The notes: generated from the letters alone by a model not told the origin. A stretch of DNA of 64,000 nucleotides from Paracoccaceae bacterium (GCA_965216135.1 CBDCFL010000021.1:232492-296491); one strand, 5' to 3'. Shown: positions 4,897-53,185, counted from the stretch's first letter. A program made the numbers and translations.

Positions 4897-5771
4897 AACT
4901 CAGTAAAGGATATGCCGCAATGCGCCGCCTGTTCAGGGCTGAGAGAGGTCGGCGTCATCCCCGGCTGGGTATTGGTTTCCAACAGGATCAGACCGTCGCG
5001 GCCGCGCGCCTCGTCCCAGCGGAAATCGGCGCGGCTAACACCCCGGCAGCCCAGAACAGCGTGCGCGCGCAGGGCCAGCGACCGGCAAGCGGTATCAATA
5101 TCGTCAGGAATGTCCGCAGGCACGACGTGGCGTGAGCCACCGTCATCGTATTTGGCGTGATAGTCGTACCACCCGTCGGTAACGATGTCGGTAACCGCCA
5201 GCGCCCTGTTGCCCATCACCGTGACCGTCAGTTCGCGCCCGGGCACATAATCTTCGACTATCATTTCATCGGGCAGGTCGCGGGCCAGACGCGGCGGGCC
5301 GTTGGCATTTTCCTGGACGATGTATACGCCGACGGAAGAGCCTTCGTTGTTTGGCTTGATCACATAGGGCGGTTTGAGGATGTGGCCCGCTTCGATCGCC
5401 TCGCGCGCGGCGATGACGCTTTGGGCGACCGGCAGGCCGACGGCGGCGAACACATCCTTGCTTTTCTGTTTGTCCATCGCCAGGGCCGAGGCCAAAACCC
5501 CGGAATGGGTATACGGGATGGCCATCCATTCGAGCAGGCCCTGAACGCACCCATCCTCACCCCAGCGCCCGTGCAGCGCGTTGAAGGCGACATCGGGGCT
5601 GGCCGCGGCCAGACGCGCGGCAAGGTCTGGACCGGCGTCCAGTTCTTCAACCTGATAATCTGCCTCCCGCAGTGCGGCGGCGCACTCGCGCCCCGATACC
5701 AGCGACACTTGGCGCTCAGCCGAAATGCCGCCCATCAATACCGCCACTTTGGGGGTTGCCCTGCTCGACAT
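4857..5771 (-). CDS. ddl: D-alanine--D-alanine ligase
   Basis: ATP-grasp motifs ([22 protein letters not shown]). dcw position. Confidence 0.95.
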
Positions 5772-5795
5772 GCCCCGGTCCGTATTTTTTGCCTG

Positions 5796-6755
5796 TTACC
5801 TGGCCTTTTTGTCGGCCAGTTGTTCATTTGCACGCGGGACTGCCTCACCAACCCGCATGATCTCCCATTCTAGGGAGATTCCCGACGTTTGGAAAACCCT
5901 TTTTCGCACCTGCTCGCCCAGCGATTCCAGTTCCGCAGCCGTGGCAGCGCCGGTATTGGTCAGAAAGTTCGGATGTTTGGGGTGCATCTGGGCACCGCCC
6001 AGCGAAAATCCGCGCAGGCCCGCGTCGTCGATAACTTTCCAGGCTTTGTGATCATCGCTGTCATCGGGCTGCCCGGTGGACGAAAACCCAGCAGGATTGC
6101 GAAAGGTCGATCCGGCGGTGCGGTCCCTGGTCGGCTGGGTGGCGTCGCGCCGGGCCATCTGGTCAGCCATCTTTGCCTCAAGGACATCTGGGTCACCGGA
6201 GTGACCTTCAAACGTGGCCGATACCAGCACATGGCCGGGCGCCAGATCGCTGGACCGGTAGGCGAAATTCAGATCGCGCGCTGTCAGGGTCACAACCTCG
6301 CCTGTCCGGGTGATGGCCTGGGCTTGGGTGAAATGATCGCCAACGTAAGAGCCATAGCATCCTGCGTTCATCCTGACCGCGCCGCCGATGGCCCCGGGAA
6401 TGGTGCGCAGAAAGGTCAGATCAACGCCAGCGCTTGCGGCCTTGCGCGCAACATGGGCATCGAGCGCCGCAGCACCTGCGGTGACGCGGGTGCGGTCGAT
6501 GGTGATGGCGTTAAAGCCCCGCCCCAGCCGGACCACCACACCCCGAATGCCGCCATCGCGCACGATCAGGTTAGACCCGACGCCGATGGGAAATAACGGG
6601 ACGGACGGGTCCAGGGCGGCCAGAAACTGGCTGAGGTCACCGGGATCGGCGGGTTGGAACAGCCAGTCGGCGGGGCCACCGACCCGCAGCCAGGTGAGGT
6701 CGTTCAGGGGGCGGTTGGGGGTCAGGGTGCCGCGGGTGGGGGGGAGATTGGTCAC
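5796..6755 (-). CDS. murB: UDP-N-acetylenolpyruvoylglucosamine reductase
   Basis: FAD-binding N-terminal domain ([24 protein letters not shown]) and C-terminal GSTFRNP motif. GTG start at 6755. Confidence 0.95.
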
Positions 6756-7999
6756 GGATTTGACGTGTCTTTAGGCGCAACCTCTTTGGCGCGCGTGGCA
6801 ACGTCAGCAAGTTTTTTTCCGCCATAGGCGACGGCTGCGACGCCCGCCGCGACCAATATTGGCATACCGGCCAGAGCCATGATTCCTGTGGCCCCGCCAA
6901 CCAAGACTAGCCGCGCGGTGCTGTCGACCAAATCGGCGGCGTTTTCCTTGGGCCATCTTTCGAATTCAGTCTTGAATTCTGCGAACAGCCCAATGCTTTC
7001 CAGCGCCTCGGCTTCGCTTGGCGCTCCATCTTCCGGGATCAGGTTTGCCAAACTCAGTAATGAGCAATGCATATCGGTGAGAAACGTCAAAACGTGTTCT
7101 TTCTCGGTCTGCGCGATATCTGAATCTGGATTCTTGCCGCGAATTCTTTCCATTTCATTATTCAGCACTGCCAACATCGCTTCCAGTTGCGCGTGAATGG
7201 CAGAAGCGTGTTTGGCGACATTCTGCTGAACAGATTCGATTGCCTGAGGGCTCGGCGATTTCCTGGCAATTACGCCGCGCTCGTCCAGCAATATTTTAAT
7301 CACCGCGTGCACCCGCTCCGGCCCTGCATCCCAATCTTCCTTGGCCACCGCGCCCGCGATCTGGTTGAGAAGCGGCCAGTTGAGTGATCCGGCCAGCGCA
7401 TCCTCGTACCAGTTTATCCAGAAGCGCCAGGCTTCGCCTTTTTCCTCGAGAATTTCTTTGGCCCGGTCCCAGATGCCCGTGGGCGGGCTACCTAGGCCAT
7501 ACCACAGGGGTGTTTGCGAAAGGGCATTGCCCGTCGCCAATATCCGGCAATCACGGCGAACGGCCTCCCACAATGCGCTGATGCCCGACCTCGGGTAGGT
7601 CGAGTAAGCGTCGCGAATGCTTTGGCGGGCGTGGTATCCGCCGACACCGGTGGCGTAGGCGGCCATGGCGGCGGCCCGGGCGACCGGGTGTGTGTAGGCG
7701 GCGGCGGCTTCGTAGGCAGCACGGGCGGCAGCGCGGTTATCCTGGGTTGAATACACTCCAAAAACCCCGGAAGTAAGCAATGCACGGCAAATCGCCAATC
7801 CAAGCAAATCAAATTGCGGCAGCATCGCTTTCTTTTCGATGTCCCAATAGACGGGCATCACCCGCATCGCTGAGCGAAACGCGACCGCGGGCCCGTGTTT
7901 GTTTTTTTGCTCACTCAGCCAATGAAATAAGCTATCTTCATCGCGGATGTCCTCGATCTCCACCATCTGCCCTACCCGCCCGTCATTCGTTTCGCCCAT
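6752..7999 (-). CDS. Hypothetical protein with C-terminal membrane anchor, embedded in the dcw operon
   Basis: Long ORF on the operon strand. Its TGA overlaps the murB GTG (GTGA at 6752-6755). I placed the start at Met 7999; the alternative is Met 7966. The ORF-track extension to 8287 overlaps the upstream gene in another frame. I recognise no motif. Confidence 0.6.
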
Positions 8000-39854: not shown

Positions 39855-40721
39855 ATGGTTCTTTGCCGTGACTATCAGTTTTCAACTCGGCGGGCCTGTG
39901 GGCTGATTGGGTTTTCCAGATCGAGTAATGAATACAGAGGAAGGCCGGATCGCCATGCGAGGATACGGGAACGGCTGGTCACGCTTTCCGGCAAACACCG
40001 ACGCTATGGCTATCGCATGTTGCATGCCAAGCTTGGCCAGGAGGGTTTCAAGGTGAACGTGAAAGTGGTGGAGCGACTTTACCGAGAGGAGCGCCTGACC
40101 CTGCGCCGCCGCAATCGCAAGAAAATCCCCAAGGGCGTGCACGAAGGTGCCTGGTGCCCGATCGCCGCCAACCAGCGGTGGAGCCTGGACTTCACCATGG
40201 ATGCGCTCGCCAACGGCAGGAAGTTCCGCACCGTCAATCTGAAAGACGACTGCACACGGGAATGTCCGGCGATTGATGTGGCCCTGTCGATCCCCGGCTC
40301 CCGTGTGGTGGAAATGCTGGAACGGGTGGCTCGTGAGCGGGGGTACCCGGATGTTCTGACCGTTGACAATGGGCCTGAACTACGAGGCCGCGCGCTTGAT
40401 GGCTGGGCAGATGATCACGGCGTGCAGCTCTACTTCATCGACCCGGGCAAGCCGACCCAGAACGCCTACATCGAAAGTTTCAACGGCCGGTTTCGCGAAG
40501 AATGCCTGAACTTGAACTGGTTCACCTCGCTGGCCGAGGCAGAAAGGATCATCGAGGACTGGCGGATCGATTACAATCAAAACCGGCCCCACTCTTCGCT
40601 GAACTATCAAACCCCGGAAGAATTTGCCGCAAACAGGCCTTTCCATAAACCGCAATGGGCAGCGACGCTTGAGCTATCTGAAGGCTCCGCGCCACCGCCC
40701 ATTGCTCACGCCGCCGAATAA
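39855..40721 (+). CDS. IS3 orfB (DDE integrase-like catalytic domain)
   Basis: YGYRMLHAKL, WSLDFT, DNGPEL, NAYIESFNGRFREECLN, YNQNRPHSSL. Confidence 0.9.
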   Translation: MVLCRDYQFSTRRACGLIGFSRSSNEYRGRPDRHARIRERLVTLSGKHRRYGYRMLHAKLGQEGFKVNVKVVERLYREERLTLRRRNRKKIPKGVHEGAWCPIAANQRWSLDFTMDALANGRKFRTVNLKDDCTRECPAIDVALSIPGSRVVEMLERVARERGYPDVLTVDNGPELRGRALDGWADDHGVQLYFIDPGKPTQNAYIESFNGRFREECLNLNWFTSLAEAERIIEDWRIDYNQNRPHSSLNYQTPEEFAANRPFHKPQWAATLELSEGSAPPPIAHAAE

Positions 40722-40781
40722 TGGCAAACAAAAGAGGAACAGAGTCTACCTAAAAGTGGCCCTCAAATTGGGGGCAGGTCA

Positions 40782-41289
40782 CGGCTGGAATTCCATGGTT
40801 CGAAGATCAGTTCAAATGGCGGATTGCTGTTGTTCCGGGAACTGGATGAAGTGCCCGGCCGGCACGACATTGCGGGTAGATTGCTGAGAGACACGCGAAC
40901 TGGCCACAATCGCCTGCACTCACTGGTCGGCCTGTTGCGCCAGTCGGTCTTTGGTCGGCTGGCCGGGTACGATGATGTGAATGATGCGGATCGTTTATCG
41001 CTTGATCCGGTAATGCGGCAGGTGGTCGGCGGACGGGCTGTGGATGCCAGGGCCGCATCCTCAAGCCAGATGGGACGGTTCGAAACCGAGGTGCTGGCAA
41101 CTTCGGATAATCGCACTGCGCTGGCTGACTTGTCAGGGCAATGGATCGACCGGATTCACGAACGCAAACCTCCCAAGTGGATCACGCTGAATATGGACAG
41201 GTCGGTCAGCCCGACCCACAGAGCGCAGGAAGACACGGCCTGGAACGGTCATTTCGGCTGCATGTGTTATCACCCGCTGTTCGTCTTCA
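40782..41289 (+). pseudogene. IS1380-family transposase, N-terminal piece (truncated at both ends)
   Basis: SSNGGLLLFRELDE...GRLAGYDDVNDADRL...WNGHFGCMCYHPLFVF is collinear with the copy at 53186-54535. The 5' end is cut by the IS3 element and the 3' end stops at codon ...FVF. Confidence 0.85.
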
Positions 41290-42405
41290 CCCGCATTCCC
41301 CAGATGGATGCCCGTTTCTTCACCCGCAGAAGCGTGATATACTCGATTATACAATGAGTTAACCGGGTTGGAGCGGGAATTTGCGAGCGAACGCGACGGG
41401 TGAAGTACAAATCGTGCCTATCCGGTTGTCACCCACACCCACTACATCTAGGGTGCTCCCAGTCGCCCGAGTAAAGCTCGGCGTAAGTGGGAGCGGTGAC
41501 ATCGCCAGCGATTCCGAGCAGGGACCGGAAGGCGTTGAACGGGTAGAACCGCCTGTTGAAGCGGAAGGTGAACTCGTTGAGGTAGGCTTGGAGGTGCTGG
41601 TGGCTCACGCCGTGATGAATGCCACTCAGCCACGTCTTCAGGTTGGCGAAGACGAGATGAATGATCGGCAGATACTCCTCAGCGACCTGGGAGTTGCCTC
41701 GCTCGGCGACGGCGAGGTGTTTGTAGCCGCGCTTGGCGAGGCTGGTATAGCCGGACCAATCGTCGGTGATGACCGACGCACCCGAAGTAACGGCACCCTC
41801 GACAAAGCCGCAGAGCGATTCCGCGCTGCGGTCTGGCACGACAGCGAGTCGGACACGTCCGGCGTAGCGACCGCCCTTCCGCTTATCGAGCTTGGTTCCC
41901 GGCTTGCGCTGTCGCACTTCAACGGCGCTGGCGACAAGAAGCTTGTGGTGAACGCCCCGGCCCTTGCCGCGCGTGCGGCCGCCGACCCAGGTTTCGTCGA
42001 CTTCGACATGGTCGCAGGCCTCGCTGCCGATGCGGTCCTGATCCGGCCGAACCATACCAGCGCGGAGCTTGTGGAGGATCTGAAAGGCGGTTTCGTAACG
42101 GGAAAGCCCGACCTGGCGCTGGAACTGTGTGGCAGACATGCCGGGCGTCTGGCTGGCAACCAGATAGGCCGCCCAGAACCATACGCCCAGCGACGTATGG
42201 GAGCGCTCCATGACCGTCCCCGCCGTCAGCCCGGTGTCGCGGCGGCACTTTCGACAGCGCAGGACGCCGGGCCGGCTGGTGAAGCGGAACGGCTCTGCCG
42301 CCGTCTGGCAATGGGGGCAGACGAACCCGTCACCCCACCGCGCCTTCTCCAGGTAGGCGGCACAGGCCGCGTCATCCGGGAAAAGTCGTTGAAACTCGGA
42401 AGCGA

Positions 42406-44541
42406 GGGAGCGTTAGAAATTCCGTGTCATTTCTGTAAACTGAAGAAAAGGAATGACACATGCGAGAAGAATTTGATTTTGATGTAGCTTTGGCGGCTTT
42501 GCAAGATGGCCAGGGCCTTACAGGCAAGGACGGTATTCTGACGCCGTTAGTCAAGCAACTGACCGAAGCTGCATTACAGGCTGAACTGGAGGCGCATTTA
42601 AAGGCCGACAAGTCCAGCAACCGCAGGAACGGAGCTGGCCGTAAGACCATCAAATCCACGTCTGGAAGTTTCGAACTGGCAACGCCACGAGATCGGGCTG
42701 GATCGTTTGAGCCGCAACTGGTGAAAAAACACCAGACCCACATGAGCGACGAGATCGAATGCAAGATTATTTCAATGTTCGGGCTTGGAATGAGCTATCT
42801 GGACATCGCTGGACACATCTCGGAAATCTACGGTCTGGATGTTTCAAACGCCACGATCAGCGCCGTCACTGATAAATTGATCCCTGAAATCAAGCTCTGG
42901 CAGCAGCGGCCCCTGGACAGCCATCACCCGTTTGTTTGGCTTGATGCTATTCACTACAAGGTTAAGCAAGACGGGCGCTACGCAGCCAAAGCGGTTTACA
43001 CGGTTCTGGGGCTTAATCTTGAGGGCAGGAAGGAAATTCTTGGCCTGTATCTATCTGAAACCGAAGGTGCAAACTTCTGGCTCTCGGTGCTGACGGACCT
43101 GAACAATCGCGGCCTGCAAGACATCCTGATTGCTTGTGTCGATGGCCTCACGGGCTTTCCAGAGGCGATCAACGCGATCTTTCCCCAGACCGAAGTCCAG
43201 CTTTGTGTCATCCACCAAATCCGCAATTCTCTGAAATATGTAGCCAGCAAAAACCAGAAGGAATTCATGGCTGATCTAAAGCCGGTTTATAAGGCTGAAA
43301 CTGTGAAAGCGGCTGAAATCGCGTTGGATGCGTTAGAAGAAAAATGGGGAACTAATACCAACGGCATCAATTTCTGACTCTGTGGGGATTCCCAAATCGG
43401 TTTTGATCTGATTCAAGGTTGGCAAAGGAGGATCGCCATGCCAGCCAGTGTTCCGCTTCGTCGCGACTTTGATGCCCGACCTTCGTAAACTCGCCAGCCG
43501 TTGCAAGGATGCCCGGCAGAGCCGCCGTCTGTTGTCTCTTGCGGCGGTCTACGATGGCATGCGCCGTGGAGAGGCCGCAAGGATCGGTGGGATGGATCGC
43601 CAAACCCTGCGGGACTGGGTTCACCGGTTCAACGAAGAGGGACGGATGGCCTCACCAACCGCAAGGGCGCGGGCCGGACGCGCTACCTGAGCGATGTCCA
43701 GATGAAAGAACTTGGCGAGATTGTCGAGACCGGCCCCGATCCGGCGGTGGACTGTGTGGCAGACATCCGAGCGCGGGCAGACTGCTTGGCGAACTGGGGC
43801 CCATATCAGCGCCCGCCCGCAGCATCCCAGGCAGGATAAGCGGATCATCGAGGCGTTTAAAAAAAACTTCGCCGACACGCTCCAGGTGCATATAGCTGAC
43901 CTGCCAGCGGGAACGCCGGTGGAGATCTGGTTCCAGGACGAAGCACGCCTTGGCCAGAAGAATGGCCTGACGCGCCTGTGGGCGAGAAAGGGCACGCGCC
44001 CCCGCCAGCCGGCCGATCAGCGCTATCACAACGCCTATCTGTTCGGCGCCATCTGTCCGGCTCACGGCAAGGGGGCGGCGCTATGGGAGCGCTCCATGAC
44101 CGTCCCCGCCGTCAGCCCGGTGTCGCGGCGGCACTTTCGACAGCGCAAGACGCCGGGCCGGCTGGTGAAGCGGAACGAAAATGGGCTCTGCCGCTGGTAT
44201 AAATACCCAATCGTCATTAAATCATGGCGTAAAAAATGGCCCAATTTGTCGGTCTACTTCAAATATCCAGCTGACATTCGGCGGGTAATTTACACCACCA
44301 ACGCAATCGAGGCCGTGCATCGCCAGTTCCGAAAACTGACCAAAACCAAGGGCGCGTTTCCCAATGAAAACAGTTTGCTCAAACTGCTGTATATGGGGAT
44401 CCAGAACGCTTCAAAAAAATGGACCATGCCATTGCAAAACTGGAATTTGACTTTGTCCCAACTTTCCATCTATTTTGAGGGAAGGTTAGACGATGTCTTG
44501 GACATCTAGACTAACCCCGTGACACGGAATTCTGAACACCC
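42406..44541 (+). mobile_element. IS256-family element, copy 1, interrupted by an IS630 relic
   Basis: Ends are GGGAGCGTTAGAAATTCCGTGTCA and, reverse-complemented, GGGTGTTCAGAATTCCGTGTCA. The direct repeat TCGGAAGCGA occurs at 42396-42405 and 44542-44551. The transposase spans 42460-43355 plus 44200-44509 (…EEKWGTN / KYPIVIKSWRKKW…). Confidence 0.9.
43356..44199 (+). mobile_element. Degraded IS630-family copy C (same subtype as 49559-50720)
   Basis: Both IS termini are present. Several 1-5-nt deletions. One 77-nt segment and the whole 3' half are replaced by IS1595-derived sequence. Confidence 0.85.
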
Positions 44542-44668
44542 TCGGAAGCGACCGCGGAAACGAAAGGTCTTCGCGCTGCGGAACATCCATCCCCGCTTCG
44601 TCCGCCTCCCGAGCCACTCGACGCCACACCCTACATATAGTGGGTGTGGGTGACAACCGGATAGGCAC

Positions 44669-44833
44669 GGTTTGTTCTACGACGCAGATCTCACGGATCG
44701 CGTCAATACGCGCCATCCCTTGCCCAACCAGAACCTCAACCTGGCGCAGCTTGGTAACAATCTCTTCGGGTTTGTGCCTTTTGATTCCCATCTTTGATCC
44801 TCCATTTCCTAACTATAGGGGCGGACCAATTCA
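44669..44833 (-). mobile_element. Left end and first ~41 codons of a second IS3-family element
   Basis: Minus-strand IR TGAATTGGTCCGCCCC..., then MGIKRHKPEEIVTKLRQVEVLVGQGMARIDAIREICVVEQT, cut by IS1595. Confidence 0.7.
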
Positions 44834-44844
44834 TTGGGGGAGGA

Positions 44845-45054
44845 TCACGCGTCGACAGCGTGCTCGTCTATGTCAAAACACCATGATACTTTGTTGCCGT
44901 CTCGGTCCAGATATTCTGGCCAGGTGACAACGAACTCCGCATTACGCTGTTCCAGCTTTGCCAGACGCGCCTCGGAGCGCGGGATAGGCGGCGCGCGGCA
45001 GTCTGCTCGCTGATCTCCGCCGAGTCCGAGTTCTTCGTCCTGACAAGCGTCCAC
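44845..45054 (-). CDS. Small hypothetical protein (69 codons, GTG start), last gene of the cargo operon
   Basis: ORF on the operon strand with a protein-like C-terminal half (EARLAKLEQRNAEFVVTWPEYLDRDGNKVSWCFDIDEH). A competing frame (44868-45086) starts at an ATG overlapping the upstream stop. I cannot decide between them by eye. Confidence 0.3.
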   Translation of the reverse strand: MDACQDEELGLGGDQRADCRAPPIPRSEARLAKLEQRNAEFVVTWPEYLDRDGNKVSWCFDIDEHAVDA

Positions 45055-45085
45055 GAAACCGGGTGCCGGTCGGAAGAATCAGTCA

Positions 45086-46102
45086 TCAACCATAGTGATC
45101 TTCTTCTTCATCGACCGTAAGTTCGGCTCGGGTCGTGACGTCGCCGGCCACATCGATGGTGTTTTGATAAGCAACGTATGTGAACCCAGAAACGTGGAGC
45201 TTGTACGTGCCTTTGGTCACCTTGACCTTGGCCACCCCATTCTCGTCGGTGAGAGCCCTGTACGGATGCAGAAGGACGTGCACGCCCTTGATCGGGGTGT
45301 GCTTTTGGGCGTCGAACGCCTCGACCGTCACTTCGTAGTCCGGGGCGCCGACCACCTTGACCCCGAAGGGGAACGCGCCGGCAGCGTGCGGGAACTCCGA
45401 GTCCGACTGGGCCTCCCAGGCACCGGACTTCAGCTCCCACTTGTAGTCGCCGACGGCACCGGGAGCCTCCACTTCCACCTCGGCGTAGTACAGCGCCGTC
45501 GTGCCCGGCCACGGCTCGTCGACGAGGGTCGTGGTGGCGACCTCGGCACCCTCGTGGTCGACGACGGTCAGCGCCTTGCCGGCGAGCTTGCAGCCCTGGG
45601 AGCATTTCAAGCCGACCTTCAGCTTGAAGCGCTCGCCGGCGACGATCGCCGACGCCATGCCCCAGACGTTCAAGCGCGCGGCGTGGGCGTTGACCGTGAA
45701 GGAGAACTTGGCGGCGGTCTCCTCGTGCGAGACGCCGTTCTTTTCAACCGCTGGCAGCACCGCCCGATAGGTGTGCTCGCCCGGCTTGCCCGGCACCTTC
45801 ACGACGATGTCGGTGGCGTAGTCGTACTCCTCGTGCGCGTCTTCGTCGTCATCGTCGTCATCGTCGGCCTCGTCGTGCCGGTCCTCGTCCTCCTCGGCGT
45901 CCTCCGGTTCTGCCAGCTCGGCGGTCGCGACCTCGTTGTCGTACTCGTCCCGGATCGAGACGCTTTGCCCCGTCAGGTCGTCGCCGAACGGGCAGGCGAC
46001 CCAGACCGTCAGGGTGAGCTCGGCACCGGCATCGACCTCGCCGGGCGAGACATCGACCGTGCACTTGCGCTGACCGTGCGCCGCGACTTCGTCTGCTGCC
46101 AT
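45086..46102 (-). CDS. Hypothetical acidic multi-domain protein (Ig-like repeats, 30-residue D/E run, C-terminal CarboxypepD_reg-like beta-sandwich)
   Basis: GGAGGA lies 9 nt upstream of the ATG at 46102. The ORF-track GTG at 46111 is too close to the SD. No signal peptide. The C-terminus YEVTVEAFDAQKHTPIKGVHVLL...DENGVAKVKVTKGTYKLHVSGFTY resembles carboxypeptidase-regulatory-like folds. Confidence 0.75.
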   Translation of the reverse strand: MAADEVAAHGQRKCTVDVSPGEVDAGAELTLTVWVACPFGDDLTGQSVSIRDEYDNEVATAELAEPEDAEEDEDRHDEADDDDDDDEDAHEEYDYATDIVVKVPGKPGEHTYRAVLPAVEKNGVSHEETAAKFSFTVNAHAARLNVWGMASAIVAGERFKLKVGLKCSQGCKLAGKALTVVDHEGAEVATTTLVDEPWPGTTALYYAEVEVEAPGAVGDYKWELKSGAWEAQSDSEFPHAAGAFPFGVKVVGAPDYEVTVEAFDAQKHTPIKGVHVLLHPYRALTDENGVAKVKVTKGTYKLHVSGFTYVAYQNTIDVAGDVTTRAELTVDEEEDHYG

Positions 46103-46270
46103 GTTGTTCACTCCTCCGAAACTCCGAACGCGAGATTATGCGCCACCGGCCCGCCGAAAAAGGGGTGACAGAGCGCCAACCGAGGCCTGACGCGGCCCGG
46201 CTGGGGCGCTGCCCTCGGGACATCGGAACGCCCGGGCTAGGTGACCCGGGCGTTCCGCTTCTCGGTGGGC

Positions 46271-46302
46271 AATACCGGGGGGGGGCCGGCCCCCCCGGTA
46301 TT
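46271..46302. repeat. G/C-homopolymer palindrome AATACC-G9-CCGG-C7-GGTATT
   Basis: Read directly from the sequence. It lies in the 227-nt spacer between the flavoprotein stop (46330) and the next gene's start (46102). Confidence 0.9.
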
Positions 46303-46329
46303 CTCGGTCGGTTTCTTAGGCCCGCCCGT

Positions 46330-48402
46330 TCACACCGCGTTGGTGCCGGCCATGTAGCCGTGGACGGCCGCGCGCCCAATGCCGTGCATCATGCCACCTC
46401 CACTTGCCTCGCCACCTGCATAGAGGCCCGGGACGACCTGGCCTTCGGTGTCCACGACCTGGGCCTTGCCGTTGATCCTGAGGCCCCCATAGGAATCGCC
46501 AACGTACATCGGCGCTATAAGCGCGTAGAAGGGCGGCGTGTCGATCCTGTGCATGACCGGCTTCTCGAAGTCGTCGTCCATGCCCGCGTCGGCAAACCCG
46601 TTGAACTTGGCCACCGTTTCTTCAAGATACTTGAGAGGCATAGTCTGATATGGGTTCCCAGTGGCTAGTCTAGCCAGTTCGGCCAGCGTATCGGCCTGGA
46701 AGAAATATCCGTCGGGCGGATCGGCGATATAGGGATACCGCAACTCCCACCCTCCCCGCTCCACCGCGGCCGCGTCGAAGATCGCCCACACCGGTCCCGA
46801 CGAGTAGGTTGGTGCCCGCGAACCCTCGTTCATCGCCAAGGCCGCATCCGAAGCAGAGGTCCTCGAATAAGCCGCCTTGATGTGCTCGACACTCGCGTTG
46901 CGCCAATCCAGCGGGACCCACGGGTCGCGGGTGTTGGATTGCCCCCCCCCCCCGGGGCCGGAATACCTGGCAGCGGTGGTACCATCATCTGGAATAGCCA
47001 TCTCGTTGTAGAACCTCTGCCCGACCTGGTTGACCGTGATCACATTTTCCCATCCGCTGTTGCCGATACTGACACCCCAGGACCGTCCGAACAGGAATCC
47101 GGGGTGTCCGGGGAAGATCTGCGTCGTCGCCTGGGTCGCCAGTATGTTTCTTATTCCGGGAGTAGCGTCGTAAAAGTAGTTATGCATCATGCCGGCGAGG
47201 TTCGCGCCGATTCTCATGCCGGCGATGATCCCGCTGCCGTCCATGCTGAGAGGTCCGACATCGTTGTTACCCGAATACCCGATCGACGGCTCTGTCATTC
47301 GCGGATCGAACATCGTGCGGAGTTGCACATTGCCGTGCATGCCGCCGGTGCCGATGATGACGGCCCGTCTTGCCCGGATGTAGATCGTGTCGGCGCGCTC
47401 GTCGACATTGCCGTTCTGCCAGAAGCTTTCCAGACGCTCGCCGGTCTCGGGGTTGAACCGCGGCGTGTAGCTCGCCCGGACGCCCACAACCCTGCCGGAC
47501 AAAGGCTGCTCGCGGATGATCTCGTCCAGATGCCGGTTGACCATGAACTGGACGCCCTTCTCGCGGGCGCTGAACTCGAGCGGCCGGGCGATCGTGAAGC
47601 CGCCGAAAACCCATCCGGGGGCACCTACCTCTTCCGCCGGGTTGCCGGGGATCCTACGCATCGGATTGAACGGCGAGTGGCGCTCGGCAGCGGGGTCGCC
47701 CCGGTCCTCCGGCGACAGGGTTCCGGCCCTGATGTCGGTGACGTCGGCGAGCTTCATGATGGCGCGCGCGGACCGGCCGCGGCTCATGCCGCCGCCGCTA
47801 TGGGTGCCATTGATTCGCGCATACCGGACATAGTTGTCCATCGTGAATTGCCTGGTTGCGGCGGCGTTATCCGCCCAGCCACGATGCAGTCCTCGGTCAT
47901 TGTGTCGGTAGTAAGGGGTACCCGCATTGGTTACGACCGACCAGTCGGTCATGTCTTGGAAGAGCCGGTCGGGGTCATCTTCCAGGTCTTCGGGCGGGAC
48001 CAGCGGTTCGGTCAGCCCCATGCCGTCGGGGTCGGCGGCCATGCGGTCGCGTTCCTGGATGGCGTCCCCGCCGCCGTAGGACGACCAGCCGCCGCTGTGC
48101 AAGAGCTTCCCGCCGACGTCGAAGTTCGCGTCGATCACAAGCACTGAGGCTCCGAGATCGCGTGCCCTGATAGCGGCAGGCAGCCCCGTACACCCCGACC
48201 CACAGACAACAATATCCACTTCGTAGTCCCAGCGAATGTCAGCAACGGTCGACTGCGCCTGGGCCTTGCCCGGCGCCGACAGGACGGCCGCCCCGGCACC
48301 AGCGGCAGCTCCTGCCTTGACGAAATCTCGCCTACTGAGGGCTGCTGGGGTGCCTTCGTCCTGAGGCGCTCGTCTTTTCCGGCTCTTGTGCTTCTTCGTC
48401 AT
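46330..48402 (-). CDS. Tat-exported FAD-dependent oxidoreductase (FAD_binding_2 / fumarate-reductase-KstD-like flavoprotein)
   Basis: Twin-arginine signal SRRDFVKAGAAAGAGAAVL...AQA. Dinucleotide fold DIVVCGSGCTGLPAAIRARDLGASVLVID. C-terminal VPGLYAGGEASGG. Strong SD GGAGGA. Confidence 0.9.
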   Translation of the reverse strand: MTKKHKSRKRRAPQDEGTPAALSRRDFVKAGAAAGAGAAVLSAPGKAQAQSTVADIRWDYEVDIVVCGSGCTGLPAAIRARDLGASVLVIDANFDVGGKLLHSGGWSSYGGGDAIQERDRMAADPDGMGLTEPLVPPEDLEDDPDRLFQDMTDWSVVTNAGTPYYRHNDRGLHRGWADNAAATRQFTMDNYVRYARINGTHSGGGMSRGRSARAIMKLADVTDIRAGTLSPEDRGDPAAERHSPFNPMRRIPGNPAEEVGAPGWVFGGFTIARPLEFSAREKGVQFMVNRHLDEIIREQPLSGRVVGVRASYTPRFNPETGERLESFWQNGNVDERADTIYIRARRAVIIGTGGMHGNVQLRTMFDPRMTEPSIGYSGNNDVGPLSMDGSGIIAGMRIGANLAGMMHNYFYDATPGIRNILATQATTQIFPGHPGFLFGRSWGVSIGNSGWENVITVNQVGQRFYNEMAIPDDGTTAARYSGPGGGGQSNTRDPWVPLDWRNASVEHIKAAYSRTSASDAALAMNEGSRAPTYSSGPVWAIFDAAAVERGGWELRYPYIADPPDGYFFQADTLAELARLATGNPYQTMPLKYLEETVAKFNGFADAGMDDDFEKPVMHRIDTPPFYALIAPMYVGDSYGGLRINGKAQVVDTEGQVVPGLYAGGEASGGGMMHGIGRAAVHGYMAGTNAV
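46942..46953 (-). repeat. G12 (coding-strand) homopolymer inside the flavoprotein gene
   Basis: Twelve consecutive C on the plus strand, encoding GGGG in ...YSGPGGGGQSN.... Confidence 0.95.
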
Positions 48403-48945
48403 GTCCGTTCCTCCGTAGTATCTCCGCCGTTAAGTGTTGCTGGCCGATGAACGGGTACTTGGCAACGAATCCCGAACCGGCTTCCGGTTCAGAGAGACCT
48501 TCGCGACCGCTGGCCAACGTGGCTCGCACGGAAACGGCATCACCGTGCCAACCGATTCTGTAAGTCTTTTAGCGGGTTACTCTCAGTTTTACCGCTGATA
48601 GAAACCGCAGGTCTTCAGGTTAACATGTGATTTAATATTCCGCAAGTGTCGGTAACAGACAATCGCGCTCCAATCTGCGCGGGCACCTTGGACGGTCCCC
48701 GGTAGTCTAACCGGCCGCCGGATCGTGCGAGCGGAAACATATCGGACCGCCACCCAAGTCCGCTCCCCGGGAAGCGAGCGCAAGACCACCGATGTCAGCC
48801 GTTTTCCGAATCGCGAGAGCTGAAGCGCAGAAAAAGCGTACCTGTCAGTGAGATCCGCGGGGCACCTTTCCCGGCCGCCATCCCCGCGCGCGAATTGGCG
48901 CCCGGTTTTGGCGCGTGGGAAGGCGGTCTGCCATGACCGGCGCGG

Positions 48946-49413
48946 CTAGTTCTGGACGATCTCCCCCAGCAAATAGTCGACCAGAGCCTCGATCTCGTCG
49001 GCGTCAAATGCTCCGGACACTACCGTCCCTGCCGGCGCCGGGCCGAGCTCGAGCTCGTAGCAGGCGGTCTCTGTGTAGGCCCCGGCAAGCCATGCCGGCA
49101 TTGGCGTCTCTGGCCGCCCGCAGCTGATCAATTCTATCAGTTGGTCGCGGTCCAATTCGGTTGACCGTACACTCGGGCCGGTCGCCTGCTCGCTACCGGC
49201 ACCGCCGTGGCCGCCGTGTCCCGAACGGCCATGGCAACCGGCGCATCCTCCCCCATGCCAAAACTGTTTGCCCACTTCCGCCGCATCCTGCGCGAACGCC
49301 GGCGCAGGCATGGCCAGGAAGGCGACGACCGCCAGCCCTACTATCCCCGCGCGTCGGGTCTTATGCGATGTACCTTGCCGATTTCGTCCGATTTCGTTCG
49401 TTTCCGAGTTCAT
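48946..49413 (-). CDS. Class I c-type cytochrome, secreted
   Basis: Sec signal ...AMPAPAFAQD, heme motif CAGCH and a distal PMPAW Met. Start taken at ATG 49413. Confidence 0.85.
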   Translation of the reverse strand: MNSETNEIGRNRQGTSHKTRRAGIVGLAVVAFLAMPAPAFAQDAAEVGKQFWHGGGCAGCHGRSGHGGHGGAGSEQATGPSVRSTELDRDQLIELISCGRPETPMPAWLAGAYTETACYELELGPAPAGTVVSGAFDADEIEALVDYLLGEIVQN

Positions 49414-49558
49414 ATCAAACAACCCTTTTCAAACCACCCTTTTTGGCGAAAGACCGAGGGGCCGGCGAGAGGCGAAACCAGCCACAATCGCCCCTTCTGT
49501 ATCAGAAGCGGCATGAGACAGCCATGAAAATCACGAGGAAGAAATGCGAAATCCGTTA

Positions 49559-50720
49559 TACCAACGGCATCAATTTCTGACTCTGTGGGGATTCCCAAAT
49601 CGGTTTTGATCTGATTCAAGGTTGGCAAAGGAGGATCGCCATGCCAGCCAGTGTTCCGCTTCGTCGCGACTTTGATGCCCGCCACCTTCGTAAACTCGCC
49701 AGCCGTTGCAAGGATGCCCGGCAGAGCCGCCGTCTGTTGTCTCTTGCGGCGGTCTACGATGGCATGCGCCGTGGAGAGGCCGCAAGGATCGGTGGGATGG
49801 ATCGCCAAACCCTGCGGGACTGGGTTCACCGGTTCAACGAAGAGGGACCGGATGGCCTCACCAACCGCAAGGGCGCGGGCCGGACGCGCTACCTGAGCGA
49901 TGTCCAGATGAAAGAACTTGGCGAGATTGTCGAGACCGGCCCCGATCCGGCGGTGGACGGGGTTGTCCGCTGGCGGCGGATCGACCTGAAGCGGGTGATC
50001 GAGGCGCGCTTTGGCGTCATCTATTCCGAGCGCGGGATATCCAGACTGCTTGGCGAACTGGGCTTTGCCCATATCAGCGCCCGCCCGCAGCATCCCAGGC
50101 AGGATAAGCGGATCATCGAGGCGTTTAAAAAAAACTTCGCCGACACGCTCCAGGTGCATATAGCTGACCTGCCAGCGGGAACGCCGGTGGAGATCTGGTT
50201 CCAGGACGAAGCACGCCTTGGCCAGAAGAATGGCCTGACGCGCCTGTGGGCGAGAAAGGGCACGCGCCCCCGCCAGCCGGCCGATCAGCGCTATCACAAC
50301 GCCTATCTGTTCGGCGCCATCTGTCCGGCTCACGGCAAGGGGGCGGCGCTCATGCTGCCTTGGGCGGACGCGCAAGCCATGCAGATGCATCTCGACGAGA
50401 TCAGCCGCCACGTCGCCCGAAAGGCCCATGCGGTTGTGCTGATGGATCGGGCCGGATGGCACACCACCGGCAAACTCAAAGTCCCGAAGAACCTCACCAT
50501 CATCCTGCTGCCATCGCGCGCTCCGGAACTGAACCCGGTGGAAAATATCTGGCAGTACTTGCGCGCCAATTGGCTCTCCAACCGCGTGTTCGAAGACTAC
50601 AATGCCATCGTCGATGCTGGATGCGAAGCTTGGAACAAGCTCATCGCACAGCCCGAAACCATCACATCAATCGGAATGCGAAAATGGGCCCATATCGGTC
50701 AATGTTAAATGCCGCTGGTA
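49559..50720 (+). mobile_element. IS630-family element, subtype 2, copy A (1162 bp)
   Basis: IRs are TACCAACGGCATCAATTTCTGAC and, reverse-complemented, TACCAGCGGCATTTAACATTGAC. Same length as copy B, and the encoded transposases are identical. Confidence 0.93.
49641..50708 (+). CDS. IS630-family transposase (355 aa, intact)
   Basis: HTH half, then EIWFQDEARLGQ...MDRAGWH...ELNPVENIW DDE half in a single frame (A8 run). Confidence 0.93.
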   Translation: MPASVPLRRDFDARHLRKLASRCKDARQSRRLLSLAAVYDGMRRGEAARIGGMDRQTLRDWVHRFNEEGPDGLTNRKGAGRTRYLSDVQMKELGEIVETGPDPAVDGVVRWRRIDLKRVIEARFGVIYSERGISRLLGELGFAHISARPQHPRQDKRIIEAFKKNFADTLQVHIADLPAGTPVEIWFQDEARLGQKNGLTRLWARKGTRPRQPADQRYHNAYLFGAICPAHGKGAALMLPWADAQAMQMHLDEISRHVARKAHAVVLMDRAGWHTTGKLKVPKNLTIILLPSRAPELNPVENIWQYLRANWLSNRVFEDYNAIVDAGCEAWNKLIAQPETITSIGMRKWAHIGQC

Positions 50721-50999
50721 TTACCCAAGATCAGCAGCCTGCCGGGCTCGGTGCACATCGAGTGGAAGCGATGCGGGCGGTCCAACTGCCGCTGCCGAGC
50801 TTGAAGGCTTCATGGGCCCGACTACGCGCGCCACTGGCGTGAGGGAGGGCGGCAGAAGAAAGCCTATGTTCCGTCTGGCGATGTGCACGCCATTATACTG
50901 GTTGTCGAACTGAGGCGCGCGCTCGTTCCGGCGTGTTCCGAGATGAGAAGGCGCGTCGAGGGCTCCCTTTCCGGACAACCTCTGAGGGTCGAACGATGA
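50721..50999 (+). pseudogene. 5'-truncated small Cys-rich gene with in-frame TGA (DUF6788-like; family name from memory, unverified)
   Basis: ...SLPGSVHIEWKRCGRSNCRCRA*RLHGPDYARHWREGGRQKKAYVPSGDV.... Begins at the IS630 boundary. TGA at 50802-50804. Its final TGA overlaps the next ATG. Confidence 0.45.
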
Positions 51000-51646
51000 G
51001 CACTGCAGACAAAGCACGGGGCGCCATCGCCGAGGGATCGGTTGGAGACCATCCGCCGCCCGCGCCTTCACCTGATGAGGCTCAGCGCCGTGCCGACGAG
51101 CACGAGCGTCGGGTCCGTGACGAGATGGAGAGCCAATTTGCGCGGCTGAAGGATGAAGGCAAGGCACTGTTTGGCATGGTCGAGGGACGCCCCGGTGTGA
51201 AATCGCCACCCGAGTGGGCCAAGCGTCTCGACCAGGCCGGCGACGACATCGGCAACGGTCGCTTCGTCGTCCGTTATCTCGGCACCGAACGGTACCTCGA
51301 CGCGGAAACCGTGACGGTGCTGGTCACTCTGCGTCAGAACCTGATCGCCGAGTTGCCTCGACCGTCGACCGCCGACCTGATGATGATCGATGCGGCGATC
51401 GTCGCCTATTACAACTTCCTCCGCGTCCAGGGCTGGATCGGCAACTCGGCCCTTGTCTTCGAAGGTGAATTGTTCGGTCAGAAGCCCCTCAGCGAGATCC
51501 ACGGCGACATGGTGGGCAGCCGATTGAGGGAGCAATTGGAGCGTCTCAGCGAGGTCATCCTGCCGCTTCAGGACCGCTGCCACCGGATGATGGTGCGCAG
51601 CCTGGGACAATTGGCGAGGACGGGCGAACGGAGGCCAGCTGCATGA
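50996..51646 (+). CDS. Hypothetical protein (216 aa)
   Basis: ATGA-coupled to the preceding remnant, with a GAGGG SD-like sequence. No motif recognised. Confidence 0.5.
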   Translation: MSTADKARGAIAEGSVGDHPPPAPSPDEAQRRADEHERRVRDEMESQFARLKDEGKALFGMVEGRPGVKSPPEWAKRLDQAGDDIGNGRFVVRYLGTERYLDAETVTVLVTLRQNLIAELPRPSTADLMMIDAAIVAYYNFLRVQGWIGNSALVFEGELFGQKPLSEIHGDMVGSRLREQLERLSEVILPLQDRCHRMMVRSLGQLARTGERRPAA

Positions 51647-52073: not shown

Positions 52074-53185
52074 CGTGCCTATCCGGTTGTCACCCACACC
52101 CACTATATGTAGGGTGTGGCGTCGAGTGGCTCGGGAGGCGGACGAAGCGGGGATGGATGTTCCGCAGCGCGAAGACCTTTCGTTTCCGCGGTCGCTTCCC
52201 GAGTTTCAACGACTTTTCCCGGATGACGCGGCCTGTGCCGCCTACCTGGAGAAGGCGCGGTGGGGTGACGGGTTCGTCTGCCCCCATTGCCAGACGGCGG
52301 CAGAGCCGTTCCGCTTCACCAGCCGGCCCGGCGTCCTGCGCTGTCGAAAGTGCCGCCGCGACACCGGGCTGACGGCGGGGACGGTCATGGAGCGCTCCCA
52401 TACGTCGCTGGGCGTATGGTTCTGGGCGGCCTATCTGGTTGCCAGCCAGACGCCCGGCATGTCTGCCACACAGTTCCAGCGCCAGGTCGGGCTTTCCCGT
52501 TACGAAACCGCCTTTCAGATCCTCCACAAGCTCCGCGCTGGTATGGTTCGGCCGGATCAGGACCGCATCGGCAGCGAGGCCTGCGACCATGTCGAAGTCG
52601 ACGAAACCTGGGTCGGCGGCCGCACGCGCGGCAAGGGCCGGGGCGTTCACCACAAGCTTCTTGTCGCCAGCGCCGTTGAAGTGCGACAGCGCAAGCCGGG
52701 AACCAAGCTCGATAAGCGGAAGGGCGGTCGCTACGCCGGACGTGTCCGACTCGCTGTCGTGCCAGACCGCAGCGCGGAATCGCTCTGCGGCTTTGTCGAG
52801 GGCGCCGTTACTTCGGGTGCGTCGGTCATCACCGACGATTGGTCCGGCTATACCAGCCTCGCCAAGCGCGGCTACAAACACCTCGCCGTCGCCGAGCGAG
52901 GCAACTCCCAGGTCGCTGAGGAGTATCTGCCGATCATTCATCTCGTCTTCGCCAACCTGAAGACGTGGCTGAGTGGCATTCATCACGGCGTGAGCCACCA
53001 GCACCTCCAAGCCTACCTCAACGAGTTCACCTTCCGCTTCAACAGGCGGTTCTGCCCGTTCAACGCCTTCCGGTCCCTGCTCGGAATCGCTGGCGATGTC
53101 ACCGCTCCCACTTACGCCGAGCTTTACTCGGGCGACTGGGAGCACCCTAGATGTAGTGGGTGTGGGTGACAACCGGATAGGCACG
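52074..53185 (+). mobile_element. IS1595-family element, copy 2 (1112 bp, intact)
   Basis: Same ~32-bp inverted repeats as copy 1. Its flanks belong to two different ISs (IS30 and IS1380) and there is no TSD. Confidence 0.92.
52153..53169 (+). CDS. IS1595-family (ISXO2-like) transposase
   Basis: N-terminal zinc ribbon (CPHC...CRKC), then VEVDETWVGG...ITDDWSGY...NLKTWLSGIHHGVS. Start placed at MDVPQRE. Confidence 0.9.
   Translation: MDVPQREDLSFPRSLPEFQRLFPDDAACAAYLEKARWGDGFVCPHCQTAAEPFRFTSRPGVLRCRKCRRDTGLTAGTVMERSHTSLGVWFWAAYLVASQTPGMSATQFQRQVGLSRYETAFQILHKLRAGMVRPDQDRIGSEACDHVEVDETWVGGRTRGKGRGVHHKLLVASAVEVRQRKPGTKLDKRKGGRYAGRVRLAVVPDRSAESLCGFVEGAVTSGASVITDDWSGYTSLAKRGYKHLAVAERGNSQVAEEYLPIIHLVFANLKTWLSGIHHGVSHQHLQAYLNEFTFRFNRRFCPFNAFRSLLGIAGDVTAPTYAELYSGDWEHPRCSGCG

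Follow-up and report, generated by a model that had tools for sequence, protein, structure and literature searches.

A candidate periplasmic flavoprotein dehydrogenase system with a beta-sandwich partner and a class I cytochrome c in a Paracoccaceae bacterium

A 64,000-nucleotide (nt) stretch from a Paracoccaceae bacterium (GCA_965216135.1 CBDCFL010000021.1:232492-296491), called the window here and with all coordinates counted from its first letter, carries three co-directional and intact open reading frames (ORFs) on the minus strand between positions 44845 and 49422. They encode a cytochrome c, a flavoprotein with a signal for twin-arginine translocation (Tat) and a protein of immunoglobulin (Ig)-like domains, and we propose, at slightly better than even confidence, that their products make up a type of periplasmic flavoprotein dehydrogenase system that has not been described before. 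An earlier reading of this DNA, made from the sequence alone and called the sequence-only reading below, had picked out the locus as an undescribed functional module bracketed by insertion sequences (ISs). Its core idea holds, since the trio is conserved and neither the flavoprotein nor the Ig-like partner has been characterised. Of the four co-directional genes that it listed, the cytochrome c, flavoprotein and Ig-like protein genes stand, and the fourth, a small ORF, does not. The elements of the locus and its flanks are as follows.

48946-49413, minus strand: cytochrome c gene, monohaem class I, 155 amino acids (aa) from the ATG at 49413; the ORF opens with a TTG at 49422
48403-48945, minus strand: spacer of 543 base pairs (bp) between the cytochrome c and flavoprotein genes
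46330-48402, minus strand: flavoprotein gene, 690 aa, a Tat-type flavin adenine dinucleotide (FAD) protein of PF00890
45086-46102, minus strand: Ig-like partner gene, 338 aa from a family-conserved Met; the full ORF spans 45086-46111
44845-45054 or 44868-45089, minus strand: small ORF(s), probably no gene, outside the module
49559-50720, plus strand: IS630-family element with DDE_3 and helix-turn-helix (HTH) domains, outside the module
44544-44833, minus strand: probable IS3-like orfA start remnant cut by an IS1595 end, as judged from its sequence; left flank of the module

The N-terminus of the flavoprotein (LSRRDFVKAGAAAGAGAAVLSAPGKAQA, followed by Q) combines the twin-arginine motif SRRDFVK with a hydrophobic region and an AxA cleavage site, and the protein is a predicted Tat substrate; PF10518 scored 21.6 bits, just below its cut-off of 22.7. 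Pfam matched PF00890 in two stretches at 91.7 bits (cut-off 20.4), and with GSGCTG as the GxGxxG motif and a C-terminal PGLYAGGE, the signal, the FAD fold and the GLYAGGE motif recognised in the sequence-only reading are all present. More than 1140 homologues were found. The best of them share 63-72% identity at lengths of 675-718 aa, and nearly every homologue bears the label hypothetical or 'FAD binding domain'. In 24 homologues of this identity range R24 and R25 are invariant and F27 is nearly so, and G68, G70, G73, G659, Y661, G663, G664, E665, H673 and R677 are likewise invariant. The flavoprotein stayed far below the cut-off of every curated NCBIfam model that it matched, among them flavocytochrome c (TIGR01813, 122.2 bits against 285.45), two KstD models (PRK12844, 100.7 against 789, and PRK07843, 84.4 against 788), TcuA (NF006130, 53.5 against 369) and vinyl phenol reductase (NF053717, 73.6 against 600). 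Judged by these scores, it is a member of the PF00890 superfamily that lies outside every characterised orthologous group, which agrees with the earlier view of this protein.

When the family profile was aligned to PDB structures, only residues ~57-130 and 560-690 were covered, together with a weak match of the ATGG strand at ~335-400, and the structures matched were Fcc3, UrdA, cyclohexanone dehydrogenase (8AM3) and KstD. In this search no structure was matched by the capping region, over its full length, or by the stretch of ~130-140 residues that follows the first Rossmann segment, and the middle 431 residues alone matched nothing in Pfam and only the internal FAD-binding strand in the PDB. 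By these comparisons the flavoprotein, which would be the catalytic subunit of the system, represents a new subfamily, set apart by the additional ~130-140 aa and by a substrate (capping) domain that has diverged. The invariant H673-G-x-G-R677 lines up with the segment HGANRLG of flavocytochrome c3 (Fcc3), whose substrate-binding and catalytic residues are H365, R402, H504 and R545. R677 is the counterpart of R545, the Arg to which the substrate carboxylate binds in Fcc3, SdhA and NadB; the region of H365 and R402 was not alignable. The alignment of H673 and R677 hints at a carboxylate-bearing substrate.

Gene linkage was followed in two directions. In the forward test, 84 non-redundant loci were found via the flavoprotein, 80 of them with enough downstream sequence. 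The Ig gene was adjacent to the flavoprotein gene in 61 of these 80 (directly downstream in 59), eight loci, mainly of a Devosia clade, had a cytochrome gene and no Ig gene, and in 11 the flavoprotein gene stood solo, with neither of the two. The hosts include Xanthobacteraceae, Devosia, Pelagibacterium, Micropepsaceae, Rhodobacteraceae/Paracoccaceae, Acidobacteriota (Vicinamibacterales, Terriglobia), Trueperaceae, Burkholderiales and Armatimonadota. The reverse test started from 80 metagenome loci found via the Ig protein, 60 of which had at least 400 bp of upstream sequence, and the flavoprotein gene was located upstream of the Ig gene in 52 of the 60, with its 3' end immediately upstream in 35 and at a distance of 0.8-4.7 kilobases (kb) on the same strand in 17 more. 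A conserved gene between the two was rejected, as the inserts in these gaps are unrelated and often on the opposite strand. No flavoprotein was seen in the other eight loci, of which six have less than 2.3 kb of sequence and two (L109 and L092) are genuine exceptions. The distance matrices of the flavoprotein and the Ig protein correlate (r = 0.745, Mantel p ~0.001, 46 pairs), with the Ig protein evolving faster. The two genes are inherited together across phyla. Since Devosia-type loci keep the flavoprotein and the cytochrome with the Ig gene absent, the Ig protein cannot be a relay on which electron transfer to cytochrome c always depends. Its role may be to stabilise the enzyme, to anchor or tune it, or to serve as an optional relay.

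Other neighbours of the flavoprotein gene occurred in minorities of the loci (genes for DUF6152, a 316-aa secreted protein, TctC and MarR). In 11-16 loci, including L041 and L046, the genes upstream of the flavoprotein encode a DUF6152 protein, which after its signal peptide would begin HHSFAMFD, and an unannotated secreted protein of ~316 aa. The chromosome of Pelagibacterium halotolerans ABH-592 (L043) has an operon of flavoprotein, Ig protein and dihaem cytochrome with a copper-type P-type ATPase gene immediately upstream (5413-7926), a single case that is of interest only in view of the putative metal site of the Ig protein. Another cultured carrier, Devosia ginsengisoli (L025), has the flavoprotein and cytochrome genes alone. 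Tandem genes for two different Tat-signal PF00890-like flavoproteins of 711 and 589 aa, with the Ig gene absent, lie at L016 9944-13867. An uncultured Pseudovibrio (L033 9974-11980) encodes a 58%-identical flavoprotein apparently without a twin-arginine signal and without an Ig or cytochrome neighbour, which may be a cytoplasmic variant or have a mis-assigned start.

The Ig-like protein had no significant match in Pfam or NCBIfam. The AlphaFold 2 (AF2) model predicts three beta-sandwich domains with a mean pLDDT (predicted local distance difference test) of 81.5 and disorder only at the N-terminus and at residues ~70-95, and Foldseek searches with this model returned only generic multi-Ig, MG (complement), pilin and S-layer folds. 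A word-indexed search gave 774 matches and an exhaustive search 1177 representative clusters at 50% identity, nearly all of 300-320 aa and without obvious fusions; typical members have 310-315 aa, compared with 338 aa in the window, and two-domain forms of ~210 aa that lack domain 1 exist. The 'acidic multi-Ig protein' of the sequence-only reading is a fitting description of the window protein, with its three sandwiches and isoelectric point (pI) of 4.4, but not of the family, for which the median pI is 4.9 (mildly acidic) and in which the Asp/Glu-rich insert at residues ~66-96 is confined to the window's own clade (P0121-P0123). Domain 3 is probably CarboxypepD_reg-like: PF13620 matched 41 of 54 members (E < 0.01), although the window protein scored 22.4 bits against a cut-off of 32.2. 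It was also the only part recognised in PDB profile searches with the family, which matched it to the TonB-linked outer membrane receptor 9gbc and weakly to 6hif_Y, a small 'assembly factor' of hydrazine dehydrogenase (E = 0.0095). The partner is an undescribed family without a curated family, solved structure or described function, and the earlier statement that the 338-aa protein cannot be placed in any described redox system is borne out by the Pfam, NCBIfam and PDB profile searches.

Domains 1 and 2 of the partner are internal duplicates (VSCPHGCDLxGQSVSI versus IKCSAGCKLTGRxLSI). Domain 2 contains the residues H143, C170, C174 and H242 (H...CxxxC...H, abbreviated HCCH), which are complete in 131 of 148 diverse representatives. 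Their equivalents in domain 1 (H12, C40, C44 and H129) are all present in 49 of the 148 and otherwise mostly lost jointly, with pairwise Fisher p values of 6e-6 to 3e-16, uncorrected for phylogeny. The window protein has HCCH in domain 2 and a degenerate HCDH (H12, C40, D44, H129) in domain 1. In the topology of the AF2 model, assigned with DSSP, the four positions are located at one end of the sandwich, at the start of strand A and in the B-C and F-G loops. The conserved residues suggest one or two putative His2Cys2 metal sites, whose spacing corresponds neither to CuA (H...CxxxCxxxHxxM), the position of the CuA His being taken by G178, nor to Rieske centres (CxH...CxxH).

None of the members of the Ig-like family that were examined carries a signal peptide, and the N-termini of the 148 representatives are hydrophilic. 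We suggest that the partner is carried through the Tat pathway by the flavoprotein, as a hitchhiker. The missing signal would also suit a protein that is not co-exported, acting instead as a cytoplasmic maturation or Tat-proofreading factor, or as a module that binds the substrate or anchors the enzyme and whose Zn site is purely structural. This explanation could draw on the clades that do without the Ig-like protein, on the resemblance of domain 3 to the hydrazine dehydrogenase factor, and on the location of the gene, as maturation proteins of redox enzymes are usually encoded beside their Tat substrates. We regard it as rather unlikely, because the Ig protein is a 300-aa triple beta-sandwich, whereas the Tat chaperones known are small proteins, helical or ferredoxin-like, and because Ig-like and CarboxypepD_reg domains are overwhelmingly extracytoplasmic. 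Moreover, the His2Cys2 motif is conserved and evolves as a unit, which suggests that the Ig protein is more than a scaffold.

The cytochrome c has a positively charged N-terminus, a hydrophobic segment, a signal ending in AFA before QD, a single CAGCH haem motif and a match to PF13442 (Cytochrome_CBB3) at 28.6 bits (cut-off 27), and the sequence-only reading of the upstream gene as a monohaem class I cytochrome c with a Sec signal was correct. Its start at the ATG at 49413 agrees with the gene call in a sister assembly (L006). The protein contains a conserved TPMPAW segment, which probably supplies the distal Met ligand of the haem, and two further conserved Cys residues. Of the 80 loci of the forward test, ~28-33 have a CxxCH gene directly after that of the flavoprotein or Ig protein, encoding monohaem proteins of 140-190 aa or dihaem proteins of ~260 aa with two PF13442 domains, and in at least ten loci a window-type cytochrome directly follows the pair or the flavoprotein. 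The monohaem cytochromes of L023-L037 are 36-49% identical to that of the window and share its extra Cys pair and the signature CG.P.T.MPAW.KGAY...C.

A search based on the cytochrome delimited a small subfamily of 52 matches. Its members adjoin genes for pyrroloquinoline quinone (PQQ) dehydrogenases of 597-598 aa in four independent contexts (L169, L170, L174 and L175/L176) and follow the gene of a CarboxypepD_reg/beta-propeller protein in L171-L173. At L177, the gene of a 50%-identical cytochrome is upstream of, and divergent from, a distantly related flavoprotein-Ig pair (33% and 31% identity), which consists of a Tat PF00890 flavoprotein of 561 aa without the extra segment and then a 312-aa homologue of the Ig partner; the trio is found again in this remote branch, where the cytochrome is encoded upstream as it is in the window. 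The subfamily is a recurrent companion of periplasmic oxidative dehydrogenases and is not exclusive to the flavoprotein. Because the trio recurs elsewhere, it is no chance juxtaposition created by IS activity, a possibility that the sequence-only reading had itself raised.

The 543-bp spacer has a GGAGG upstream of the flavoprotein ATG and is the probable place of a promoter or regulatory region that belongs to the flavoprotein gene itself; a spacer of 227 bp separates the flavoprotein and Ig genes. A promoter and terminator scan of this spacer matched no sigma-70 consensus and found only weak terminator-like hairpins, and an Rfam search of the spacers gave nothing meaningful, with one sub-threshold ftsZ-DE match. 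Such a gap with hairpins would be expected if the cytochrome c were a mere neighbour in the window, serving general periplasmic electron transport or a lost PQQ-dehydrogenase cluster, and the unit were the flavoprotein-Ig pair. The surrounding region is indeed full of IS elements, most close homologues of the cytochrome adjoin PQQ dehydrogenases and not flavoproteins, and the flavoprotein clade closest to that of the window (~70% identity, Xanthobacteraceae-like) has no adjacent cytochrome gene. However, three related genomes with independent IS events have the same gene order, cytochromes of the subfamily stand immediately after flavoprotein or Ig genes in the ten or more other loci, the L177 cytochrome accompanies a distant homologous pair, and ~40% of the loci have some c-type cytochrome gene directly downstream. 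We find it improbable that the cytochrome is only a bystander, and a functional link to the flavoprotein in the window is likely.

Two observations concern the wider surroundings of this cytochrome subfamily. The PQQ clusters at L169, L170, L174 and L175/L176 comprise the PQQ dehydrogenase, the cytochrome and two or three unannotated proteins of 230-300 aa and look uncharacterised. The CarboxypepD_reg protein of ~560 aa, with a beta-propeller of the Vgb_lyase/SGL type, is encoded directly upstream of a window-type cytochrome at L171 3210-5411 and near a solo flavoprotein at L005 3043-4722; this type of cytochrome may serve it too, as a further redox enzyme of the periplasm.

With respect to the direction of electron flow, the sequence-only reading had allowed for a dehydrogenase or a reductase wired to the cytochrome. 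PQQ dehydrogenases are oxidative enzymes that reduce c-type cytochromes, and the occurrence of the same cytochrome subfamily beside them therefore favours a dehydrogenase, which narrows the earlier proposal, although the cytochrome is not dedicated to the flavoprotein. The reverse direction would make the flavoprotein a periplasmic terminal reductase that receives electrons from cytochrome c and reduces an enoate, a lactone or a similar compound, with Fcc3, urocanate reductase and Cgr1/Cgr2 as precedents. Consistent with this, flavocytochrome c (TIGR01813) is the best curated match and Fcc3 and UrdA are the best PDB matches, the Fcc3-type C-terminal H-G-x-x-R motif is kept, and Cgr2 is itself a Tat-exported PF00890 reductase paired with a cytochrome (PMC5953540). 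Yet no multihaem or quinol-oxidising donor is conserved nearby, and the hosts are mostly aerobic soil and marine heterotrophs. The partner cytochromes, moreover, are monohaem or dihaem class I proteins (PF13442), which are typically of high potential and thus poor donors to enoate-type acceptors. Together with the place of the subfamily beside oxidative PQQ dehydrogenases, these points lead us to consider a reductase unlikely.

In the dehydrogenase system that we prefer, the flavoprotein would fold and receive its FAD in the cytoplasm, where the signal-less beta-sandwich partner would bind it, and Tat would then export the complex, the partner travelling as hitchhiker. Once in the periplasm, the flavoprotein would oxidise a small, probably carboxylate-bearing substrate at a C-C or C-N bond, by analogy with succinate dehydrogenase, aspartate oxidase and KstD of the same superfamily, and electrons would pass to the class I cytochrome c, a soluble carrier, and from there into the aerobic respiratory chain and to a terminal oxidase. 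The His2Cys2 site or sites of the partner would bind a metal, with a structural role or as an electron relay. A bolder version, to which we assign a low probability, sees in the partner family unrecognised redox-active metallo-subunits that hitchhike through Tat, have a His2Cys2 centre (for instance CuA-like copper or unusual iron-sulphur) in each of one or two duplicated domains and belong to a widespread new class of periplasmic dehydrogenases feeding cytochrome c with electrons from some substrate common in soil or the sea.

Several points weigh against the proposed dehydrogenase system. The cytochrome and flavoprotein genes are 543 bp apart, with operon signals not detectable, and the flavoprotein clade closest to that of the window lacks an adjacent cytochrome gene. 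The 11 solo flavoprotein loci and the eight with a cytochrome and no Ig gene show that the trio is not constant among the 80 loci, and clustering of the neighbourhoods gave no conserved gene beyond those for the Ig protein and the cytochrome, so it provided no clue to the substrate. In the flavoprotein, the position of Fcc3 H504 ('HHTMGG') is not His but Ser or Tyr within DS[YNF]GG, and the AF2 model from the 24-sequence alignment had a pLDDT of 39 and was unusable. The co-occurrence statistics carry no correction for phylogeny. What the analysis shows is the Tat motif with its conservation, the signal-less state of the partner, the linkage of the genes and the associations of the cytochrome, whereas hitchhiking, complex formation, metal binding, the direction of electron flow and the class of substrate are inferred.

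Among the systems known, the group of Fcc3, UrdA, KstD and cyclohexanone dehydrogenase provides the best PDB and NCBIfam matches of the flavoprotein and shares with it the GxGxxG, ATGG-like and GLYAGGE...HGxxR motifs. Fcc3 also has the periplasmic location and the c-type haem partnership proposed for the module. However, only ~250 of the 690 flavoprotein residues align with this group, the capping domain and the ~130-140-aa segment being unmatched, and the module's flavoprotein has no domain that binds flavin mononucleotide (FMN), while the module adds the Ig-like partner. Whereas Fcc3 has a fused tetrahaem domain, the module has a separate monohaem cytochrome gene, and the 690 aa of the flavoprotein contain no CxxCH and hence no fused tetrahaem domain. 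The closest functional analogue of the proposed mechanism is NicA2 (Pnao) of Pseudomonas putida S16, an oxidase-like periplasmic flavoprotein of the Tat type that uses a small dedicated cytochrome, CycN, encoded nearby (PMC9396064); in contrast to the module, NicA2 belongs to the flavin amine oxidase family and not to PF00890, lacks an Ig-like partner and has a known substrate.

The closest three-component architecture is that of the GMC-type FAD-dehydrogenase complexes, as FAD-glucose, fructose, sorbitol and gluconate dehydrogenases consist of a catalytic flavoprotein, a small subunit for Tat-hitchhiker export and a cytochrome c subunit (PMC6719666). Their catalytic subunit is a signal-less GMC-family protein with a 3Fe-4S cluster, in contrast to the PF00890 flavoprotein here, the Tat signal is on the small subunit (PF13618) and not on the flavoprotein, and the cytochrome is membrane-associated and multihaem instead of monohaem. 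The module's partner showed neither a PF13618 match nor a Tat signal in the Pfam and NCBIfam scans. Cgr1/Cgr2 of Eggerthella lenta likewise pairs a Tat-exported PF00890 flavoenzyme with a cytochrome c partner encoded beside it (PMC5953540), but it is an anaerobic reductase of Gram-positive hosts with a [4Fe-4S] cluster and a membrane multihaem donor, and it lacks an Ig-like subunit. By these comparisons the module falls outside each of the specific families, and it clearly belongs to the PF00890 superfamily and to the periplasmic flavoprotein:cytochrome c oxidoreductases. In a non-exhaustive literature search, no description was found of a system of Tat PF00890 flavoprotein, cytochrome c and Ig-like protein, of the flavoprotein subfamily or of the partner family.

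Through periplasmic dehydrogenases that deliver electrons directly to cytochrome c, bacteria can gain energy from compounds that are never imported, and the known kinds (PQQ alcohol dehydrogenases, NicA2, FAD-glucose dehydrogenase) are useful in bioenergetics, biosensors and bioremediation. The module described here is abundant in public data, and is carried by marine Alphaproteobacteria as well as by lineages that dominate in soil, namely Acidobacteriota and Xanthobacteraceae-like Alphaproteobacteria. What is new is a flavoprotein subfamily together with a partner family, both of them outside the curated families, the solved structures and the functions described so far. Identification of the substrate would give a function to thousands of 'hypothetical' genes and could bring to light a beta-sandwich subunit with a cofactor, of a new kind, and one more case of hitchhiking through Tat. 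Nothing that we found contradicts established principles.

The history of the locus can be read from two related assemblies. The IS630 element beside the cytochrome gene, correctly located at 49559 in the sequence-only reading and with a DDE_3 transposase, is precisely missing from the near-identical L006, where window positions 49558 and 50721 are contiguous, and is a recent insertion. L006 carries all three genes at 99-100% identity and has an extra IS (391-aa HTH transposase, L006 8483-9658) in the cytochrome/flavoprotein spacer, at ~48645-48663 of the window. In L007, a 95-98% identical relative, the same spacer has an 85-bp deletion. At L007 7117-9790, the cytochrome gene, truncated by an IS, retains only its final 41 codons beside a DDE transposase fragment, and the flavoprotein is called as two ORFs (437 and 171 aa); the split and the truncation could reflect decay of the module or an assembly error at low coverage (7x). 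IS content is polymorphic within the population. The order of cytochrome c, flavoprotein and Ig genes predates the IS events, because the three related genomes keep it with different IS insertions. The IS elements flank the module and did not assemble it, and the earlier idea that they define the unit does not hold.

The sequence-only reading had further regarded the genes as the only substantial non-IS cargo of an IS block and as horizontally acquired, judging by composition. The first of these views is partly right, but in L006 native sequence continues past the IS630 site (window 50721 onward), and the module is therefore no composite-transposon cargo; FtsK and LolA genes are found near the module in L006, and the left flank up to 44833 is collinear with it. 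As for composition, the G+C content is 63.4% in the module, 60.2% in the window and 60.7% in positions 1-38000, a weak signal at most, and the earlier sample of 67% falls within the lineage-specific Asp/Glu-rich insert of the Ig-like protein. With this collinearity and these G+C figures, a composite transposon or horizontal transfer is unsupported, and the module sits in an IS-rich chromosomal region. A set of 72,556 plasmids, searched with both DNA and protein, gave no match, and the module is thus no known plasmid cargo.

At the downstream end of the module, the small ORF had no family match in the Pfam and NCBIfam scans, and among the 84 loci compared it had homologues only in near-identical strains. 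The synteny of L007 with the window breaks at 44973, within this ORF, and on these two grounds we discarded it as a fourth gene; the interval 44845-45089 probably holds no gene and lies outside the module. On the other side, just past the IS630 copy, a 237-aa ORF (50933-51646, plus strand) is a native neighbour of the cytochrome gene that is kept in L006; it was unmatched in Pfam, and no homologue of it was found in the PQQ-cluster loci.

For the IS3 end that the sequence-only reading had placed at 44833, plausibility comes from the sequence of ORF 44486-44791, the C-terminal part of which repeats the N-terminus of the IS1595 transposase at 52075, but Pfam, in which the IS3-like remnant was unmatched, does not confirm it. 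Further to the left, an IS256-type (Transposase_mut) gene is split over 42460-44509, with profile positions 9-302 at 42460-43377 and 301-377 at ~44195-44425, and is interrupted by an IS630 fragment (DDE_3 positions 2-53). The whole of 39855-44833 is a nest of IS3, IS1595, IS256 and IS630 pieces.

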